Below are positions 1,884 through 63,925 of a stretch of 64,000 bases of DNA, piece after piece. Numbering within the stretch: the first letter of the stretch is position 1; the number at the start of each line of letters is the position of its first letter. The notes beneath the pieces are model-generated. The model searched no databases, had not been told where the DNA came from, and saw only the letters and a program-made list of their open reading frames with translations. The DNA is from a virus (taxonomy: Duplodnaviria > Heunggongvirae > Uroviricota > Caudoviricetes). Position numbers and translations under genes: made by a program. The stretch lies in the IMG/VR virus record IMGVR_UViG_3300037307_000441; one strand, 5' to 3'.

Positions 1884-2306
1884 ATGATACAAAGCGGCAG
1901 TAAAGTAAAGTTAAACTATACCGGAAAATTAGAAAATGGAGAAATATTTGATACTTCTATGGGAGAAGGAAGAAATCCATTAGAATTTACGGTTGGTGCT
2001 GGACAACTAATCAAGGGTTTTGAAGATGGAATCATGGGACTTTCTGTAGGTGATAAAAAGACAATTCATATGACACCAGAAATAGCATATGGATCAGTTA
2101 AAGAAGACCTACTTTTTGAAGTTCCTAAACAAAATTGTCCAGAAGGAGTTTCAGTAGGAAATACACTACAAACAGTTTTACAAACCGGTGCTTTAGCTAC
2201 ATTTACTGTGACTGAGGTAAAAAATGATACCGTCGTAATCGATGGAAATCATCCACTGGCTGGGAAAAATTTAATATTTGATGTAGAAATATTAGAAATC
2301 CATTAA
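1884..2306 (+). CDS. FKBP-type peptidyl-prolyl cis-trans isomerase (SlyD/FkpB-like)
   Basis: VKLNYTGKLENGEIFDTS...PLEFTVGAGQLIKGFEDGIMGLSVGDKKTIHMTPEIAYG is the canonical FKBP domain pattern. Confidence 0.75.
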   Translation: MIQSGSKVKLNYTGKLENGEIFDTSMGEGRNPLEFTVGAGQLIKGFEDGIMGLSVGDKKTIHMTPEIAYGSVKEDLLFEVPKQNCPEGVSVGNTLQTVLQTGALATFTVTEVKNDTVVIDGNHPLAGKNLIFDVEILEIH

Positions 2307-12902: not shown

Positions 12903-15900
12903 ATGAAAAAGACAATTATGATGTCACTTCTATCACTTTTAGTGACGTTCACCACGTTTGGTCAGATTACAACATCTACCATATCGGGAGTGGTGAAAAA
13001 TGAGAAAGGTGATGTGTTGGCCGGAGCATCGGTACACGCCCAACATCAACCCACGGGTACCGATTATCGAACGACAACAACCAAGTCCGGTGGTTATACA
13101 ATACCCGCTGTCAGACCAGGTGGTCCGTATCTAATCCACGTTTCATATGTTGGGTACAAAACTAAAGAAGTCACAGAAGTAAATACCTCTTTAGGTTTGA
13201 CAACAAACGTGGATATTGTTTTAGTAGAAGAATCAAAAACATTAGGTGAGGTTACTGTTGTAGGAACCAGAAATAATACCTTTTCTAAAGACAAAACTGG
13301 TGCCTCCCAACAATTTGGTAGAAGAGAGTTGCAGACTATACCTATTGTTGGCGCTAGAACAATTGATGGTATTACTAAATACAACCCATTTGGTGATGGT
13401 AGATCTTTCGGTGCACAAGATTCGAGAATGAATAATTTCACCATTGATGGATCTCAATTTAACAATGGATTTGGTTTGGGTTCTTCAGCACAGGCTGGTG
13501 GTAGAACTGGGTCAACCGCAATATCATTAGATGCTATTGACCAACTACAGCTTAATATTGCGCCATTTGATATTCGCCAAAGTGGATTTACAGGTGCTGG
13601 TATTAATGCAGTAACAAGATCTGGTACAAATAATGTAGAAGGATCTTTTTATAGAACAAATAGAAATAACACTTCTTCTTATGTTGGTGACAAAGCTTAT
13701 AATGTGCCTGTTACTTCTTCAAAATTTGATGAAGAAGTTTGGGGATTCCGCCTAGGAGCACCTATCATTAAAAATAAATTATTTATTTTTGGTAACTACG
13801 AAAGCTTAGTAAGAACAGAGCCAGGAACAACATGGATATCAGATGGTTCACCATTATCAGGTTCACAAATAAGTCGAGTTAAATATTCAGATATGCAAAC
13901 TCTCTCTAATTTTATGAGAGATAAGTTTGGATATGAAACTGGTCCATGGGAAGGATATAGCAATGCTAATGAATCTAAGAAATTCTTAGTTAGAGCAGAC
14001 TGGAATATTAATGAAAAGCATAAGTTAACTGCTAGATATGTTCATCACAATTCATTTGCAGAAATTAACATATCCAATTCACAATCAGCGGGTGCTGGTA
14101 ATAGAACAACACAGTTCAATGCAATGTCTTTCAAAAATAGTGGATATTTAATTGAAGATAATACCCGTTCTGCGGTTCTTGAATTAAATTCTAAATTTTC
14201 AAATACATTACATAATAATTTAATTGTTGGTTATGACAAACAACTTGAGAATAGAGGATATCTTAGTCCAATGTTCCCAACAATTGATATTAGAGAAGGT
14301 TCGGCTACTTATACTTCAGTAGGTTTTGATCCATTCACTCCTAGTAACAAGTTAGATTATGGAACTTTCCATATTACTAACAATATGACTAAGTATTTGA
14401 ATAAACATACTTTAGTATTCGGGGCAAATTTTGAAAGCTTTAAGTCTAATAATCTTTTCTTTCCGGCTTCTAATGGTGTTTATATTTTTAACAGTTTGGC
14501 TGATTTTTATACAGCAGCTAATCAATCATTGGCTAATGGTGGAGCACCATCAGCATTTGCTCCAGCTAGATTTCAATTAAGATATTCGGCATTACCAGGT
14601 GGGGTAGAACCAATGCAAGTTTTAAAATCAAGTAGATTTGATTTTTATGGACAAGATGAATGGAACTTAAATCCTGATTTGAAATTGACATTTGGATTAA
14701 GAGGTTCTATAATTGGTTTTGACAACACAGCTTTGGAAAACCCAACAGTGACAGCAATGACTTTTGCGAATGGTGAAAAATTCAATACAGGAACGCTACC
14801 AAAAACTCAGTTATTGTGGGAGCCTAGATTTGGATTTAACTACGATGTTAAAGGTCAGAAAAAAACACAAATTAGAGGCGGTACCGGTATCTTTACTGGA
14901 AGACCTCCTTATGTGTTTATCTCTAACCAAGTTGGGAATAATGGTGTGTTAACTGGATTCATTGATGTTAGTGGTGCTGCCGCAAATGCTTTTGGATTTA
15001 CAGCAGATCCTAATAAATATTTTATACCATCAACACCCACCCTTCCTTCTACATTTGATTTAGCGTTCACTGACCCTAATTTCAAATTCCCACAAGTTTG
15101 GAAAACAAACATCGCTGTTGACCAAAAATTACCTTTCGGATTTATTGGTTCAATAGAATATTTGTATAACAAAACCTTAAATGGTGTTCATTATTATAAT
15201 GCGAATTTAGACAATCCGATTGGTACATTAAGTGGTGGTGGTCTTAATATAACATCTGTTGATAATAGATGGAGATTTGCAAACAATGATGCTGGGGTTA
15301 GAGTTAATGATAATGTTTCTATGGGTGCGGTATTAACCAATATTGATGGTGCATATCATCAATCATTAACAATGAGACTTGAATATCCTGTTAAAAAAGG
15401 ATTATGGGGGTCAATAGCTTGGACAACTGCTGAATCATTTGATTATATGAGCGCTGGTTCTATCGCAAGTGGTAGCTGGCAAAGTATAAAATCAGTTAAT
15501 GGTAACAATAATGTAAATTTAAGTTTATCCGATAACTTTATTAAAAACAGATTTGTTGGATTATTGGGTTATAGATTTGAATACGGTAAGAAATGGGGTG
15601 GAGCCACTACGGTAACTCTTGGTTATATCGGCACACAAGGTGGAGCATTCTCTTACTTTGTAGCGGGTGACTTAAATGGTGATAGAGTTAGAGATAATGA
15701 ATTGATATTTGTTCCTTTAAAAGGATCAGATGTTAAGTTTCAACCTTTAACTGTGGGAACCACAGTATATACAGAGGCTGATCAGCAAGCAGCATTTGAT
15801 GCATTCATCAACCAGGATCCTTATTTGAAAAATAGAAGAGGTCAATATGCTGAAAGAAATGGTGGAATATTACCTTATCTACACAGATTTGATTTATCAA

Positions 15901-16199
15901 TTGCACAAGATTTCTTTGTTAAAGTAAAAGAACATAAGAACACATTCCAAGTTAGATTTGATATCTTAAACTTTGGCAATATGGTAAATGATAATTGGGG
16001 GGTTTCACAAAGAGCAGCCGCCCCTGCTTTGTTAAACTTTGTTAGTTATAACACAGTAGGCGAACCTACTTACAGATTATCAACTCAAAAATTTGTTGAT
16101 GGTACAACAACACTGGTTAGAGATTCTTACCAAAGAAATTCATCAGTATTTGATGTTTGGTCAGCACAATTAGGTATTAGATATATCTTCGGTAGATAA
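12903..16199 (+). CDS. TonB-dependent outer-membrane receptor-like protein (SusC/CarboxypepD_reg-type N-terminus, plug and beta-barrel)
   Basis: 1098 aa; signal peptide; N-terminal ISGVVKNEKGDVLAGASVH...GGYTI carboxypeptidase-regulatory-like domain typical of Bacteroidota TBDRs; long Gly/aromatic-rich barrel; C-terminal aromatic-rich strand; visibly GC-richer than neighbours. Confidence 0.8.
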   Translation: MKKTIMMSLLSLLVTFTTFGQITTSTISGVVKNEKGDVLAGASVHAQHQPTGTDYRTTTTKSGGYTIPAVRPGGPYLIHVSYVGYKTKEVTEVNTSLGLTTNVDIVLVEESKTLGEVTVVGTRNNTFSKDKTGASQQFGRRELQTIPIVGARTIDGITKYNPFGDGRSFGAQDSRMNNFTIDGSQFNNGFGLGSSAQAGGRTGSTAISLDAIDQLQLNIAPFDIRQSGFTGAGINAVTRSGTNNVEGSFYRTNRNNTSSYVGDKAYNVPVTSSKFDEEVWGFRLGAPIIKNKLFIFGNYESLVRTEPGTTWISDGSPLSGSQISRVKYSDMQTLSNFMRDKFGYETGPWEGYSNANESKKFLVRADWNINEKHKLTARYVHHNSFAEINISNSQSAGAGNRTTQFNAMSFKNSGYLIEDNTRSAVLELNSKFSNTLHNNLIVGYDKQLENRGYLSPMFPTIDIREGSATYTSVGFDPFTPSNKLDYGTFHITNNMTKYLNKHTLVFGANFESFKSNNLFFPASNGVYIFNSLADFYTAANQSLANGGAPSAFAPARFQLRYSALPGGVEPMQVLKSSRFDFYGQDEWNLNPDLKLTFGLRGSIIGFDNTALENPTVTAMTFANGEKFNTGTLPKTQLLWEPRFGFNYDVKGQKKTQIRGGTGIFTGRPPYVFISNQVGNNGVLTGFIDVSGAAANAFGFTADPNKYFIPSTPTLPSTFDLAFTDPNFKFPQVWKTNIAVDQKLPFGFIGSIEYLYNKTLNGVHYYNANLDNPIGTLSGGGLNITSVDNRWRFANNDAGVRVNDNVSMGAVLTNIDGAYHQSLTMRLEYPVKKGLWGSIAWTTAESFDYMSAGSIASGSWQSIKSVNGNNNVNLSLSDNFIKNRFVGLLGYRFEYGKKWGGATTVTLGYIGTQGGAFSYFVAGDLNGDRVRDNELIFVPLKGSDVKFQPLTVGTTVYTEADQQAAFDAFINQDPYLKNRRGQYAERNGGILPYLHRFDLSIAQDFFVKVKEHKNTFQVRFDILNFGNMVNDNWGVSQRAAAPALLNFVSYNTVGEPTYRLSTQKFVDGTTTLVRDSYQRNSSVFDVWSAQLGIRYIFGR

Positions 16200-24021: not shown

Positions 24022-24792
24022 ATGAAAACAATTTATGATATATTAGAAAGAGATTTAATCTTTTTTGACTTAGAAACAACAGGAACGGATTTGAAAAGAG
24101 ACCGAATAGTTGAAATATGTGCAATTAAATATAAGAAAAATCGTGGAAAAGAAATCTTACATAGATATTTGAATCCTGAAACTGAAATTGATCCTGTAGC
24201 AGTGGAAATGCACGGATTAACAAATGAGTTTTTAAAAGATTATCCATCATTATCTGAAGTTGCAGATGAAATATATAATTTTTTTAAAGGATGTGATTTG
24301 GGTGGATATAATTGTATAAATTTTGATATACCATTCTTGTTTGAAGAGTTATCAAGATGTAAAAAGTTTCTAAATGTTTTTAATGTTAATATTATTGATT
24401 CCTACAATCTATTAAATAAATGCGAGCCACGACGATTAAAAGATGTTTATAAAAACTTTTTTGGTGTTGAATTTGATAATCACCATAGTGCAGAAGCAGA
24501 TATTGAAGCAACAGTTAAAGTATTTGAAAAACAAATAGACGCTTATAAACTTGAAGATAAATCAATAAATGATATTTCGTCTATAATAAGAACAAGTGCA
24601 AATGGTGAATTAATGGTTGATATATCAGGTTGGTTCAAAAAGAAAAATGGTACATATCTTTTTGGTAGAGGAAAGCACAAAGACAAACCAGTTAAAGAAA
24701 ATGTATCATATTTGGAATGGCTGGTTAATGAAAGTGACATTGAAAATAATTCTAAAGCTGTGGCAAAAATATTATTAGAAAAGTTAAAATGA
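24022..24792 (+). CDS. DnaQ-like 3'-5' exonuclease (DEDDh family)
   Basis: LIFFDLETTGTD (Exo I), HGLTNEFL (Exo II region), HSAEADIEAT (Exo III, YxxxD/H). Confidence 0.75.
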   Translation: MKTIYDILERDLIFFDLETTGTDLKRDRIVEICAIKYKKNRGKEILHRYLNPETEIDPVAVEMHGLTNEFLKDYPSLSEVADEIYNFFKGCDLGGYNCINFDIPFLFEELSRCKKFLNVFNVNIIDSYNLLNKCEPRRLKDVYKNFFGVEFDNHHSAEADIEATVKVFEKQIDAYKLEDKSINDISSIIRTSANGELMVDISGWFKKKNGTYLFGRGKHKDKPVKENVSYLEWLVNESDIENNSKAVAKILLEKLK

Positions 24793-25709
24793 AATTAAAA
24801 CATATTATTAAAGCTCAACAATTTGATAGAGATTTATTGAATGATATATTCTCTAACTCAAATGAAATGGAATCAGTATTTAAAAATGGGCAATCTAAAT
24901 TATTAAGTGGTAAAATATTAGCCACAGTATTTTATGAACCATCAACAAGGACAAGATTATCATTTGAATCGGCAATGATGAGATTGGGTGGTAGGATAAT
25001 AACTACTGAAAATGCTAAAGAATTCTCATCTGCAGCTAAAGGAGAAAACATAGAAGATACAGTTAGAGTAATGCAATCTTACGCAGATGCCATCGTTATA
25101 AGACATCATGAATCTGGGACCGCAGAAAGGGCTAGCATGTTTTCAAATGTTCCAATCATAAATGCTGGAGATGGACCTGGACAACACCCAACACAGTCTC
25201 TAACCGATTTATATACAATACAAAAAGAATTAGGACAAGTTGATGATATTTCAATTGCTATGGTTGGTGACCTAGCAAATGGTAGAACAGTTCGTTCTCT
25301 TTGTTATCTATTATCAAAATATAAAAATGTTAAAATATTCTTTGTATCACCTGACGTTGTTAAAATGAAAGATGATATCAAACAATTTTTAACAAAGAAT
25401 AATGTTTCATTTGTAGAGGAAACTGATTTGAAAAAAGTGGCTCAAGTAGTTGATGTCATTTATCAAACCAGAATACAGAAAGAAAGATTTGGAGATAGAA
25501 TGGACGAATACTATATGGCTTCGGGTAAGTATATTATCAATGATGAAATATTATCTGTGATGAAAGAAAAATCTATTATCATGCACCCATTGCCAAGATT
25601 AGATGAAATATCCAATTCAGTTGATAGTGATCCAAGAGCAGCTTATTTTAGACAAGCACAAAATGCGGTATATGTTAGAGCAGCATTATTAAAACATTTA
25701 TTAGTATGA
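24789..25709 (+). CDS. pyrB: aspartate carbamoyltransferase catalytic subunit
   Basis: FYEPSTRTRLSFESA (STRTR carbamoyl-phosphate motif), GDGPGQHPTQSL, MHPLPR; ATCase-like loops; no pyrI nearby. Confidence 0.85.
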   Translation: MKLKHIIKAQQFDRDLLNDIFSNSNEMESVFKNGQSKLLSGKILATVFYEPSTRTRLSFESAMMRLGGRIITTENAKEFSSAAKGENIEDTVRVMQSYADAIVIRHHESGTAERASMFSNVPIINAGDGPGQHPTQSLTDLYTIQKELGQVDDISIAMVGDLANGRTVRSLCYLLSKYKNVKIFFVSPDVVKMKDDIKQFLTKNNVSFVEETDLKKVAQVVDVIYQTRIQKERFGDRMDEYYMASGKYIINDEILSVMKEKSIIMHPLPRLDEISNSVDSDPRAAYFRQAQNAVYVRAALLKHLLV

Positions 25710-25741
25710 AAAGAATAAAGAATTTTTTTAAAGTCATAAAA

Positions 25742-25858
25742 ATGAAGTATTTTTGTAAACACAACATGAATTTTGTTAAAGATAGTCCATATTATATTCA
25801 TCTCAAATGTGAAAAGTGTGGATATGAATTTGGGGTTGGGAATATAAAAACAAATTAA
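25742..25858 (+). CDS. small CxxC zinc-ribbon peptide (38 aa, MKYFCKHNMNF...KCEKCGYEF)
   Basis: read manually; below ORF-track threshold. Confidence 0.25.
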   Translation: MKYFCKHNMNFVKDSPYYIHLKCEKCGYEFGVGNIKTN

Positions 25859-25881: not shown

Positions 25882-26049
25882 TGTAGGGTGATGAAACTGG
25901 CAGACATATCCGCTCGTCTCGCGGATGGGGAGTTCGGGATAAACGTATAATAGAGCCGACGTTACTTTTGGTAAGGCCGACCAGGGTTGACCACTAATCT
26001 TTGTTGTATGGCTAACTGCCCCATGAAGGTTCGAATCCTTCTCCTACAG
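25882..26049 (+). ncRNA. aberrant tRNA-like gene with ~98-nt insertion at the variable-arm position
   Basis: acceptor TGTAGGG/TCCTACA; D-arm ATG-AAACTGGCAGA-CAT; 5-bp stem TCCGC/GCGGA with 7-nt loop TCGTCTC where the anticodon arm belongs; insertion closed by helix TGGGG/CCCCA; T-arm GAAGG TTCGAAT CCTTC; discriminator G; terminator follows. Confidence 0.35.
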
Positions 26050-26054
26050 CAACT

Positions 26055-26082
26055 AAAGTGTTGAGAAATCAACACTTTTTTA
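26055..26082 (+). terminator. rho-independent terminator
   Basis: AAAGTGTTGA-GAAA-TCAACACTTT hairpin plus T-run directly after the tRNA-like gene. Confidence 0.55.
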
Positions 26083-26109
26083 TTTAAATATATTTCGTAT
26101 ATTTGTAGT

Positions 26110-61909: not shown

Positions 61910-61927
61910 AATGAAAGGAGATAAATA

Positions 61928-62103
61928 ATGAATAAGGACTGGATAGATAAGCATTTTGAGTTAAAAGAAAAGATTCTGTTAGTAATGGAAAGGAATCTTG
62001 AGTCTAGGGAAAAGTTATTTGACCGAATTCATAATTTGACGGATGAAAGGTTAAAAGAGAAGAAGAAAAAGAAAAATTTACTACAAAGGTTATTGAAAAA
62101 ATA
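61928..62103 (+). CDS. small basic coiled-coil protein (58 aa)
   Basis: MNKDWIDKHFELKEK...ERLKEKKKKKNLLQRLLKK; read manually. Confidence 0.3.
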
Positions 62104-62105
62104 AA

Positions 62106-62137
62106 TTTGGTGGTTTCAAAATAAAGGCGTATCTTTG
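62106..62137 (+). promoter_or_regulatory. complete promoter TTTGGTGGTTTCAAAATAAAGGCGTATCTTTG
   Basis: TTTG-N20-TATCTTTG; no ORF downstream. Confidence 0.5.
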
Positions 62138-62145
62138 TATTGTGA

Positions 62146-62172
62146 TTGGGAGGTGAGCTAACTAGCACCCAC
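62146..62172 (+). ncRNA. promoter-proximal 27-nt element TTGGGAGGTGAGCTAACTAGCACCCAC (copy 1), candidate tiny sRNA/leader hairpin
   Basis: starts ~9 nt after the -7 box; GTGAG...CTCAC stem; no coding potential. Confidence 0.35.
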
Positions 62173-62187
62173 TCACAGAAAAAAAGA

Positions 62188-62219
62188 TTTGGTAGATTAG
62201 AAAATGTATCGTATCTTTG
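62188..62219 (+). promoter_or_regulatory. complete promoter TTTGGTAGATTAGAAAATGTATCGTATCTTTG
   Basis: TTTG-N20-TATCTTTG. Confidence 0.5.
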
Positions 62220-62232
62220 TGTAACAAAACGG

Positions 62233-62259
62233 TTGGGAAGTGAGCTAACTAGCACCCAC
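62233..62259 (+). ncRNA. promoter-proximal 27-nt element copy 2 (TTGGGAAGTGAGCTAACTAGCACCCAC)
   Basis: one mismatch to copy 1; followed by T-rich TTGTTTTGT. Confidence 0.35.
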
Positions 62260-62310
62260 CTTGTTTTGTAGATTAGTTCTTTGATTGATGATTTATAAAT
62301 GTTTCACGTT

Positions 62311-62342
62311 TTTGGTGATTTGAAAATTTCTCTTTATCTTTG
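62311..62342 (+). promoter_or_regulatory. complete promoter TTTGGTGATTTGAAAATTTCTCTTTATCTTTG
   Basis: TTTG-N20-TATCTTTG; bracketed by inverted repeat ATGTTTCAC (62299) / GTGAAACAT (62342). Confidence 0.5.
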
Positions 62343-62515
62343 TGAAACATTAGACGGTTCGGTTCTTTGTCCTATGAGGACCAACGTCTTTTAAGATGCG
62401 TGCGGCATCAGATAATGTCAGGTGGCCCTGATGGGTACCCTTTACGTGGTTGACTACGAAACCACATTCTGTAACAATCTGACTAACGTGGTAATGGCCG
62501 CCCATCTTTTTTTTT
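62343..62515 (+). ncRNA. candidate ~170-nt non-coding RNA bounded by promoter and terminator
   Basis: no ORF; GC-richer; internal hairpins (GATGC-GTGCG-GCATC); ends in ATGG-CCGC-CCAT hairpin plus a 9-T run. Confidence 0.35.
62494..62515 (+). terminator. rho-independent terminator (short GC stem plus T9)
   Basis: ATGGCCGCCCAT followed by TCTTTTTTTTT. Confidence 0.4.
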
Positions 62516-62648
62516 GAACTATTGAAACTTGTTATAGATTGGAACTTAGTAAATTTGTCAGGGTGATAAATTTTTGCCTAACTTGGGAAACTATTGGATA
62601 TTAATGGCGTCTGGGTTCTTTTTTTATGTAAAGTTCTTTTAAATATTT

Positions 62649-62811
62649 GGTCTGTTCGTCTAGCGGTGGTTAAAGTGTTATCTAATCACATCTTATGCTG
62701 AAATTGATGTGCTGTAGGGGAGCCAATCCCCAATAAGATGATGGTGACATTTATCCTTAGGATGACTTACTTTTCGGTAAGGGGACAGTGGTTCGAATCC
62801 ACTACAGGCTA
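62649..62811 (+). ncRNA. second aberrant tRNA-like gene (~160 nt) with internal insertion
   Basis: acceptor GGTCTGT pairs with ACAGGCT (two G:U); D-loop-like AGCGGTGG; T-arm AGTGG TTCGAAT CCACT; variable-arm-like hairpin CTTAC-TTTTCG-GTAAG (also in the 25882 element); possible anticodon loop ATCTAAT (CTA) weakly supported. Confidence 0.3.
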
Positions 62812-63273
62812 CAAAAGTGTGTTGTTCCTTAAATGGAATAGATATTGAGCTGACGAAGGCCACACCACCTGGCGTGCTATATGCGAAGTGACCAGGAACG
62901 GTAGAAGCTTACAATCCAATGTAATGTAAGATGGCTGTACCTAAATGTATCTTAGGGTAGGTTCAACTGATACACAACACATAAAGTTAAAGACTTCGAG
63001 TAAAAGGAATACGCAATTAGTGGGGATAGTATTCTGAAAGAATCCACTAATCAAAGAAGTTCTTTGAAATTTTGGGAGTTTAGGTTTAGAAAACGTATGC
63101 TGGTCACACCGTTATATAATCGGTCGTTGTCTAGTTGCAGTAGTTAAAAGCTACAAGTGGTTGGAATAACATTTCGAGACCTTTTTGTGATGTGTATATT
63201 AAGGGTGCCGATTCCCTTTCTAAACTCCTTATTTTTTCTGATTATTTCAACGGTGACGTTGTTAAATTAATAT

Positions 63274-63362
63274 CGCGGATTAGAGTAGAGGTCAAACTCG
63301 TCGGGCTCATAACCCGAAGTCCTAAACACTGGGCACGTCTGGTTCGATTCCAGCATCCGCTA
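63274..63362 (+). ncRNA. non-canonical tRNA-like gene (CAT anticodon loop, 21-nt variable region)
   Basis: CGCGGAT-TA-GAGT AGAGGTCAA ACTC-G-TCGGG CTCATAA CCCGA-21 nt-(T)CTGG TTCGATT CCAG(C)-ATCCGCT-A; C1:T72 mismatch; 4-bp T-stem; terminator follows. Confidence 0.35.
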
Positions 63363-63372
63363 CTAATGAATG

Positions 63373-63400
63373 AATCCCTTTGACAAAAAGGGATTTTTTT
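63373..63400 (+). terminator. rho-independent terminator
   Basis: AATCCCTTT-GACA-AAAGGGATT plus T-run. Confidence 0.55.
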
Positions 63401-63417
63401 ATATCAAAAATATTCCG

Positions 63418-63425
63418 TATCTTTG
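63418..63425 (+). promoter_or_regulatory. -7 promoter box (TATTCCGTATCTTTGT)
   Basis: 18 nt upstream of ATG 63444. Confidence 0.4.
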
Positions 63426-63443
63426 TATTCTAAATCAATCAAG

Positions 63444-63644: not shown

Positions 63645-63839
63645 TTTTATTAACTAAAAAGTCAACGGAAACTATATTCTGTGTTGTTATAGATAGTTTA
63701 ATATAATCTTCAGCCTTGCTAGCATGAAGAAGCGGTGTTAGTGGTTCGAGTCCACACATCTTTAAAAAGGATGTAACGATTAAATTATTTGACAAAATCA
63801 GCATGGTACGATAAATTAATAATATATTTAAAAAACTAT

Positions 63840-63925
63840 GGGTGAGTTCCTGAGTGGTCAAAGGGGCTTGTGCAGTAACACAGGTGGCTACGGTCTTCGG
63901 AGGTTCGAATCCCACCCTATCTACA
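63840..63925 (+). ncRNA. tRNA-Tyr-like element with non-canonical anticodon and T arms
   Basis: GGGTGAG-TT-CCT GAGTGGTCAAA GGG mirrors the bacterial tRNA-Tyr D-arm; anticodon region GCAGTAAC (GTA) folds only with 6- or 8-nt loop; TTCGAAT T-loop present but T-stem poorly paired. Confidence 0.25.

Follow-up and report, generated by a model that had tools for sequence, protein, structure and literature searches.

What kind of RNA is encoded by a phage gene that keeps every arm of a transfer RNA and carries about a hundred extra nucleotides between two of them? The question is raised by a stretch of 64,000 nt from IMG/VR virus record IMGVR_UViG_3300037307_000441 (Caudoviricetes), here called the window, and by a 168-nt element on its plus strand at positions 25882-26049. 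Our results give good support to the view that this element belongs to a family of RNAs with a class II-style tRNA body and the anticodon GUC, found in Bacteroidota and their phages, of which the window holds a phage-borne copy. We show that this copy is a bona fide family member under purifying selection, and comparison of homologous sequences argues well that the insertion is a conserved, elaborated and structured variable arm and not an intron. Because the folding energy is no better than that of shuffled sequence (z = -0.64 for the element in full, -0.32 for its arm alone), the case for the element rests on comparative evidence. What is new here is the family itself, a description of which was found neither in Rfam 15 nor in the full-text literature, subscription journals lying outside the coverage.

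Homologues were gathered by scanning metagenome and genome contigs with a pattern made of the D arm and the anticodon loop, which matched at least 120 contigs from metagenomes (marine, soil, freshwater and sediment samples) and at least 120 from genomes. Among the matches listed, each named genome is from Bacteroidota, with Chitinophagales, Saprospirales, Cytophagales, Flavobacteriales and Sphingobacteriales represented. A second pattern, in which the anticodon loop was left free, located a copy on 32 viral contigs. Complete elements of 108-208 nt make up 286 of the 301 pattern matches listed, all of them long-armed; the other 15 run off the end of the contig or locus or, in the case of L249, are long-armed and fell outside the extraction filter, and no arm-less homologue occurs among the 301. 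Even the shortest member (108 nt overall) has an arm of about 36 nt. Tandem arrays of two to five copies are frequent in bacteria, with 132 matches to the covariance model described below in 100 loci and five copies in Persicobacter. The window itself is AT-rich phage DNA (about 28% GC) with weak DNA similarity to huge uncultured phages only. When our element and a second tRNA-like element of the window (62649-62811, discussed at the end) were searched by blastn against GenBank phages, homologues appeared in a single entry, the 636-kb megaphage LR756504.1. There the homologue of our element lies within a tRNA cluster, and relative to the window copy it has compensatory changes both in the anticodon stem and in the insert-closing helix. 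Identity of the window copy is 77-82% to copies from Chitinophagaceae versus 67% to that of LR756504. Two other searches added little: a loose DNA pattern (GACCAC...GCTAAC...GGTTCRA) gave 84 matches on viral contigs, mostly chance but including a few true family copies, and a synteny search with the PyrB protein encoded just upstream led to two unrelated loci, with the element in neither.

The evidence for a common structure comes from an alignment of 77 representatives, at most about 84% identical to one another, covering the cloverleaf, three arm helices (P1, P1b and P2) and a small hairpin. Standard pairs fill 92.0% of its cells versus 78.5% in shuffles, and 32 of the 39 pairs show changes on both sides. 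The covariation score is 0.398, versus 0.159 in shuffles and at most 0.158 when partners are slid, and the observed values were reached by none of 500 shuffles. A covariance model built from the family alignment (R1) matches the window copy at exactly 25882-26049 over model positions 1-145 with 132.4 bits; complete bacterial copies score 99-153 bits and the tRNAs of the window at most 45, and the best sequences outside the family are tRNA-Leu genes, at 44-46. Because the window copy was among the 77 seed sequences of R1, the independent evidence for its membership is homology to hundreds of sequences with compensatory changes. It also retains all 37 positions that are invariant in the family. 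The suggestion in the original prediction of a tRNA-derived structured RNA is thus borne out by a full cloverleaf and by a variable arm that is conserved and covaries in hundreds of homologues.

Within the window copy, the 5' strand of the acceptor stem, UGUAGGG (25882-25888), pairs with UCCUACA at 26042-26048 (element positions 1-7 and 161-167) through six Watson-Crick pairs and a G7.U; across the family 99.6% of the cells in this stem are paired, with covariation in pairs 3-7 and constancy in pairs 1 and 2. U8 and G9 lead into the D arm (25891-25907), which has a 3-bp stem AUG/CAU (element 10-12/24-26) extended by A13.A23, and a loop, AACUGGCAG, that contains GG; covariation in the D stem is seen in the variants L210 and L022. 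We assign this arm to the class II, tRNA-Leu-like type because tRNA-Leu genes are the best ordinary tRNAs for R1. The anticodon arm (25909-25925) consists of the stem UCCGC/GCGGA (element 28-32/40-44) and the 7-nt loop UCGUCUC (25914-25920), with the anticodon GUC, C33, U37 and C38; compared with the family consensus CCCUC/GGGGG, stem pairs 1, 3 and 4 differ and pairing is kept each time. The T arm, GAAGG-UUCGAAU-CCUUC (26025-26041), is paired in 100% of the cells with three covarying pairs, and its loop reads UUCGANN in nearly all family members. The 3' strand of the acceptor stem is followed by the discriminator G73 (26049) and C74 (26050), so that this segment spans 26042-26050, and CCA is not encoded. 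The nucleotides of the cloverleaf tertiary interactions (U8, A14, G18 G19 and UUCGA in the T loop) are present. Immediately 3' of the element lies an intrinsic terminator made of a 10-bp hairpin and a T run (26055-26084), a terminator-like hairpin with T run at 26055-26078 being found once versus 0.2 times expected. The original prediction had read most of this correctly from the single sequence: the four arms of a tRNA-like gene, the anticodon loop with neither U33 nor a purine at 37, a terminator of its own, and an insertion of about 98 nt at the place of the variable arm, which we find to be 99 nt.

These 99 nt (element 45-143), closed by GGGG/CCCC, separate the anticodon arm from the T arm and hold a structured variable arm of 96 nt (25927-26022), supported by covariation and by the minimum-free-energy fold of the arm alone, which recovers P1, P1b and P2. 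At its base, the 4-bp helix P1 (GGGG/CCCC, 25927-25930/26019-26022) is paired in 99.7% of the cells, alternates between G-C, A-U and U-A across the family and shows compensatory changes in three of its four pairs. A 4-nt bulge, about as long in the rest of the family, separates the 5' strands of P1 and of the 3-bp helix P1b (25935-25937/26016-26018), which is paired in 88.7% of the cells with compensatory changes in all pairs and occurs in the family as CGG/CCG, CAG/CUG, UCU/AGA or AGC/GCU. Between P1b and P2 lies an internal loop formed by the conserved strands GAUAAAC (25938-25944) and GCUAA (26011-26015). P2 (25944-25955/25999-26010) is 5-12 bp long in the family and is paired in 71.5% of the cells, again with compensatory changes in all pairs. 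Beyond it the long forms have a junction, which bears optional hairpins and a GG-UNGA-CC(A)C hairpin that is conserved, the arm architecture being common to 62 long-form representatives; the window copy has a lineage-variable hairpin region at 25956-25982 and the hairpin GG-UUGA-CC(A)C at 25983-25995. A window hairpin GUUAC-UUUUG-GUAAG falls in this optional, lineage-variable part, which only some members have and whose sequence differs among them. The most conserved part of the insert is the base of the arm, in a family where arm length ranges from 36 to about 140 nt. The strand arrangement GAUAAAC/GCUAA fits what we take to be a UAA/GAN-type internal loop; by inspection, neither a K-turn nor an 11-nt tetraloop receptor fits it. 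The AGACA of the D arm could also pair with UGUCU of the anticodon loop in an alternative fold or pseudoknot, although AGAC is general in class II D arms and the connecting loops would be too short.

Standard tools overlook this RNA. The eight ordinary tRNAs that ARAGORN and Rfam detect in the window do not include the element, and the native window copy has no match in ARAGORN or in Rfam, the latter at E values up to 10 in a 500-nt search. ARAGORN found nothing among roughly 200 untrimmed family copies, and Rfam gave no match to the family in seven loci that bear it (E up to 0.1 in the bacterial loci). When the arm was deleted in silico, ARAGORN called all 234 of 234 sequences, that of the window included, as tRNA-Asp(gtc). 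The original prediction had proposed to abandon the tRNA reading if covariance models found no tRNA-like fold, a test that would have misled: the tRNA model of Rfam and ARAGORN do miss the element, and its fold is tRNA-like anyway.

How, then, does the family relate to tRNAs that are already known? With canonical elongator tRNAs the element shares the cloverleaf, the 7-bp acceptor stem and the D, anticodon and T arms, and it differs from them in having C33 and U37 where U33 and a purine 37 are expected and a variable region of 99 nt versus about 4-24 nt. The nearest known forms are the class II tRNAs and tRNA-Asp, and the family fails the defining tests of each. Class II tRNAs (tRNA-Leu, tRNA-Ser, bacterial tRNA-Tyr, tRNA-Sec and the long-variable-arm allo-tRNAs; Mukai et al. 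2017, PMC5389517) also have a paired helix between the anticodon and T arms, a 3-bp D stem and a D loop of the GG...AGAC type. However, the family combines U37 with the anticodon GUC, which is not that of Leu, Ser, Tyr or Sec, and in place of their simple hairpin of 10-20 nt it has an arm of 36 to about 140 nt in which helices branch and an internal loop is conserved; it falls outside class II because of this anticodon and arm size. In the family the acceptor stem has 7 bp and the T stem 5, as opposed to 8/4 or 9/3, and the Rfam tRNA model misses it. Bacterial tRNA-Asp shares the anticodon loop YUGUC-C, C38, G73 and G2-C71, but in the family U1-A72 replaces G1-C72, U37 stands in for a purine, the D arm is of class II and the variable arm is giant; the first two departures place it outside tRNA-Asp. 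Other RNAs are more distant. The tRNA-like module of YrlA and other bacterial Y RNAs (T arm GGUUCGAAUCC and D-loop GG) is likewise joined to a second module, protein-binding in YrlA, and YrlA is also found in phages (Chen et al. 2014, PMC4201824). Our element has no Rfam match, and its two termini pair as in any tRNA, leaving the acceptor stem open and followed by a discriminator. The termini of YrlA instead make up the stem bound by Ro, and its acceptor-like stem is closed. A transfer-messenger RNA (tmRNA) is not indicated either, ARAGORN making no tmRNA call in the window and pair 3-70 being U-A and not G3.U70.

The nucleotides by which synthetases and other enzymes tell tRNAs apart form a mixed set in this family. 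All 236 copies have U1-A72, G2-C71 and G73; of 242 unique copies, 241 have C74, and G never occurs at position -1. Among viral copies found without constraint on the loop, the anticodon is GUC in 32 of 32 and U37 is present in 31 of 32; in 14 further copies found by the model only, the loop has GUCUC in 13 and GUUUC, with a GUU anticodon, in one, and U37 in all 14. Pooled, the loop-unconstrained copies have GUC in 45 of 46 and GUU in one of 46. U33 is replaced in about 10% of copies, that of the window (C33) among them. The window copy carries U1-A72, G2-C71, G73-C74, GUC-U37-C38 and the arm strands GAUAAAC/GCUAA between P1b and P2. C38 is a feature of tRNA-Asp, and G73, G2-C71 and a long arm are features of the serine type as well (tRNA-Ser, tRNA-Sec and allo-tRNAs). 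The major determinants of aspartate identity are G34, U35, C36 and G73, with G2-C71 as a minor one, and G1-C72 is strictly conserved in bacterial tRNA-Asp, while U1-A72 is the mark read by amidotransferases on tRNA-Asn and tRNA-Gln (Giege & Eriani 2023, PMC9976931). The family is thus an identity hybrid, with an Asp anticodon, an Asn/Gln-type first base pair and no purine at 37. Since canonical tRNA-Asp genes with A37 occur on the same contigs in three cases (L090, L116 and L192), the family RNA is not the sole tRNA-Asp available there. Two unusual contigs may be added. A Cryomorphaceae metagenome-assembled genome (L250) has the GUU (Asn) copy at 1973-2086 (+), scoring 107 bits, with the loop CUGUUUC and a C-to-U change in the D arm (AGAUA), and a normal GUC copy nearby at 227-343. 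Contig Ga0306866_1002231 (L183) holds a canonical-size 74-nt tRNA(GUC) and a family member on the minus strand, at 78-151 and 2040-2194 respectively, with near-identical anticodon arms, U37 included (CCCGA-CUGUCUC-UCGGG in one, with UCGGA in the other); this pair suggests that the GUC/U37 loop functions as a module in its own right, with or without the giant arm.

The genomic surroundings differ between bacteria and phages. In bacteria, the divergent upstream neighbour is an AsnC-like regulator in 74 of 119 genome loci, among the matches listed, and this holds across orders. The protein matches the NCBIfam AsnC model end to end (157 bits, E = 4e-46, below the curated cut-off of 227; the Lrp model gives 50 bits). 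About 135-155 nt separate the AsnC-like gene from the RNA, and promoter boxes of the Bacteroidota type (TAnnTTTG) usually lie tens of nucleotides upstream of the bacterial copies, which implies a leader on their transcripts; a terminator hairpin is common on the 3' side. Downstream genes vary (TrmB, an acyl-CoA ligase and others). On viral contigs the same-strand neighbours are ordinary phage genes, for example for terminase or helicase. The window element sits between pyrB plus a small open reading frame (ORF) and the promoter of the next gene: the gene of PyrB, aspartate carbamoyltransferase, occupies 24789-25709 (+) and is followed by a Cys-rich ORF of 50 amino acids (aa) at 25706-25858 (+), just upstream of the element. 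No TAnnTTTG box of the element's own was seen between these ORFs and the element, for which reason it may be read through from upstream, in a transcript shared with pyrB, and released by processing.

Taken together, these features suggest to us that the RNA is a tRNA-processed, probably aspartylated, non-decoding paralogue of tRNA-Asp whose arm docks a partner, a reading whose mechanism we infer and whose chances we put at about even. It would be transcribed with a short leader and a terminator, in the window possibly by read-through from pyrB upstream. Four features point to tRNA-like maturation, namely an open acceptor stem, a position -1 that is never G, conservation of G73-C74 and a leader; in this process RNase P would cut at U1 and 3' trimming would be followed by completion of CCA after G73-C74. 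Aspartyl-tRNA synthetase (AspRS) could recognise the product through G34, U35, C36, C38, G73 and G2-C71, so that it would probably be charged, or at least bound. It would hardly be an ordinary decoder, given U37 almost everywhere, a dispensable U33 and a very large arm. The invariant base of the arm would be the docking site of a dedicated partner, and the RNA might act as a specialised aminoacyl carrier or as a regulator of metabolism linked to Asp and Asn. In bacteria it would probably be under amino-acid-responsive control by the divergent AsnC-type regulator, and phages might bring a copy of their own to keep or bias its function during infection.

Several points weigh against this proposal. 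Each mechanistic step, from expression through processing to charging, is one that we infer, and charging by AspRS is not assured in a family with U1-A72, given the strict G1-C72 of bacterial tRNA-Asp. G73, G2-C71 and the long arm are equally serine-type. The putative AsnC link is one of synteny, to a protein that scores below the model's cut-off, and no conserved partner protein or enzyme adjoining the RNA was found in bacterial or phage loci. A very long variable arm is by itself compatible with use on the ribosome. Finally, most homologues were gathered with patterns that fix parts of the D arm and the anticodon loop, 46 copies being free of that bias as regards the loop. A sharper version of the proposal, which we consider distinctly improbable, would make the RNA a dedicated, non-decoding aminoacyl carrier, charged with Asp via GUC, C38 and G73, distinguished by its U1-A72 end, barred from the ribosome by its U37 and its giant arm, and controlled by an asparagine-sensing regulator of the AsnC type. 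The GUU-anticodon member fits its Asp/Asn theme. If true, the RNA would serve Bacteroidota as cofactor in a step of Asp/Asn metabolism or signalling that depends on tRNA and has so far gone unrecognised, and very AT-rich phages, which are therefore presumably rich in Asn codons, would carry a copy to sustain that step. Conversion of Asp to Asn on this carrier by the GatCAB amidotransferase, as U1-A72 might suggest, is a low-probability variant that would need another enzyme, since gatCAB is absent from 12 of 14 surveyed Bacteroidetes genomes (PMC3927822).

The same observations can be read in other ways. The complete cloverleaf with its tertiary nucleotides, the near-constancy of GUC (45 of the 46 loop-unconstrained copies), the position of the gene inside a tRNA cluster in megaphage LR756504 and the canonical-size tRNA(GUC) with the same U37 loop on contig L183 would all be expected of a specialised tRNA-Asp isoacceptor that still decodes, its giant arm and U37 serving to evade a nuclease or modification-dependent toxin that targets tRNA-Asp, or to flag it for a factor of its own, as happens with tRNA-Sec; in that case phages would carry it to keep translating Asp codons. 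Ribosomes tolerate the long variable arms of class II tRNAs, but to our knowledge a pyrimidine at 37 is essentially without precedent in elongator tRNAs, U33 is lost in about 10% of copies (that of the window included), canonical tRNA-Asp genes are at hand on the same contigs, and branched arms of up to about 140 nt would be likely to clash with neighbouring tRNAs on the ribosome, so that we regard such an isoacceptor as unlikely. An anticodon arm that keeps GUC and C38 and loses its decoding features could equally belong to a decoy, that is, an uncharged or non-functional mimic of tRNA-Asp that titrates an anticodon nuclease, a toxin, AspRS or a modification enzyme. The original prediction had raised this option, and part of it survives: C33 and U37 fit a non-decoding molecule, copies occur on over 30 viral contigs, some phage contigs have a canonical tRNA-Asp 0.4-1.2 kb from the element in what would be a replacement-plus-decoy arrangement, and the frequent tandem arrays of bacteria suggest high dosage. 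What does not survive is an origin in phage counter-defence, because the family is mainly chromosomal in Bacteroidota. Phage tRNAs that counter anticodon nucleases, such as those of phage T5, are of canonical size and decode; the element resembles them as a phage-encoded tRNA shape with an anticodon loop off the host norm and differs by its extra conserved domain as well as by its chromosomal home. A decoy would leave the strictly conserved acceptor end (U1-A72, G73 and C74) and the arm motif unexplained, its main reservoir would be the bacterial chromosome, beside a housekeeping regulator in several orders, no nuclease specific for tRNA-Asp was seen near the element and we know of none; we hold it to be rather unlikely.

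An intron or mobile insertion, removed to leave a tRNA-Asp of about 75 nt, was another suggestion of the original prediction. It draws some plausibility from the good cloverleaf of the trimmed sequence and from huge Bacteroidota phages, the Lak megaphages, whose tRNA genes carry inserts of 79-114 nt described as 'enigmatic introns' (Devoto et al. 2019, PMC6784885). Like these inserts of about 80-115 nt in tRNA-like genes, ours has no Rfam match. When the Lak sequences of Table S6 were compared, however, their inserts proved to follow position 37 and to run from a small hairpin through AAAUUAAA to a nested minihelix of acceptor and T arm that has a T loop of its own, while the insert of our element is a variable arm without a nested T loop and common to bacterial chromosomes; the two are different phenomena. 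Intron models, group I included, gave no match to the window copy at E values up to 10. The borders of the insert form, by inspection, a plain 4-bp helix at the tRNA core and not the two 3-nt bulges and 4-bp helix of an archaeal bulge-helix-bulge intron. The insert sits in the variable region and not in the anticodon loop at position 37/38, its conserved base covaries in continuity with the tRNA, an insert-free homologue is missing among the 301 matches listed, and removal would still leave U37 and, in the window copy, C33. We therefore set the intron aside as highly improbable. Scarcely credible is a degenerate pseudogene or attachment-site remnant without function of its own: tRNA genes are common integration sites and tRNA finders do fail on the element, but the whole gene is present with every family-invariant position kept, three of the five anticodon-stem pairs of the window copy depart from the consensus and all still pair, the R1 score is inside the bacterial range, and the gene has its own terminator.

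If the family is undescribed, as Rfam 15 and the full-text literature suggest, it would represent a widespread Bacteroidota RNA gene overlooked by standard annotation and repeatedly captured by phages. It indicates that a tRNA body can bear a conserved extra domain of about 100 nt in its variable arm, and its mixed identity (Asp anticodon, Asn/Gln-type first pair, no purine 37) points to a job outside ordinary decoding. Culturable carriers in the genera Chitinophaga, Cyclobacterium, Persicobacter and Marinoscillum make the family directly testable. For phage biology, it would be translation-related cargo of a new kind and might serve as a host marker; among the matches listed, versions from Chitinophagaceae are closest to the window copy. 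A Bacteroidota host is also consistent with two other features of the window: TAnnTTTG-like boxes that recur, for example at 26099-26106 and in repeats at 62097-63429, and a gene resembling SusC/TonB-dependent receptors. The latter (12903-16199, +) is an ORF of 1098 aa with CarboxypepD_reg and outer-membrane beta-barrel domains, an unusual phage cargo in a stretch of higher GC (0.34-0.38).

The second tRNA-like element (62649-62811) had been thought to share the architecture of the first, and this did not hold. Its insert of about 95 nt sits in the D loop and not in the variable arm, and R1 matches its T loop only, with 8.5 bits. The hairpin CTTAC-TTTTYG-GTAAG, taken for a common feature, is the anticodon arm of the 62649 element and a variable peripheral hairpin in the 25882 element. 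The second element is a tRNA-Glu(UUC)-like gene with a D-loop insert, unrelated to the family; its acceptor stem, T arm, anticodon arm (CUUAC-UUUUCGG-GUAAG) and 5-nt variable loop are intact. After trimming, its LR756504 homologue is called tRNA-Glu by ARAGORN, and the call for the window copy is a tRNA whose anticodon is ambiguous between Lys and Glu. That homologue lies in LR756504.1 (L002, about 472-666) directly after a normal tRNA-Glu, and a scan of viral contigs found the element in the LR756504 megaphage lineage only. It is nearer in spirit to the Lak cases, from which it differs in insert position and sequence. On an LR756504-like contig (L003), a 177-aa ORF with an HNH-like CxxCH...H motif (297-830, +) ends directly before an element of the LR756504 type, so that the surroundings of the RNA differ between this other megaphage and the phage of the window.

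Other tRNA genes of these phages are also enlarged. The window encodes an 89-nt tRNA-Met(CAU) with a long base-paired variable arm at 63274-63362, and contig L003 a tRNA-Asn(GUU) and a tRNA-Thr(UGU), each of 88 nt and with a hairpin variable arm (73-160 and 166-253); the lineage seems in the habit of adding class II-style arms to isoacceptors that are ordinarily without them. T-arm motifs without an ARAGORN or Rfam call, GGAGGUUCGAAUCCCACC and GUGGUUCGAGUCCAC, occur at 63838-63925 and about 63700-63770, the former region resembling a tRNA with an irregular T stem and an anticodon loop of 6 or 8 nt (R1 score 9.9 bits). A stretch of about 1.5 kb (61910-63420) has almost no long ORFs and raised GC, and its GC-rich parts at about 62360-62510 and 62820-63230, which have no Rfam match, look like further small structured RNAs. 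Promoter units of the Bacteroidota type (..CGTATCTTTGT..) are repeated at 62097-62141, 62179-62223 and 63385-63429, and a near-identical 27-nt hairpin unit, TTGGGAGGTGAGCTAACTAGCACCCAC, occurs twice, at 62146-62172 and 62233-62259.

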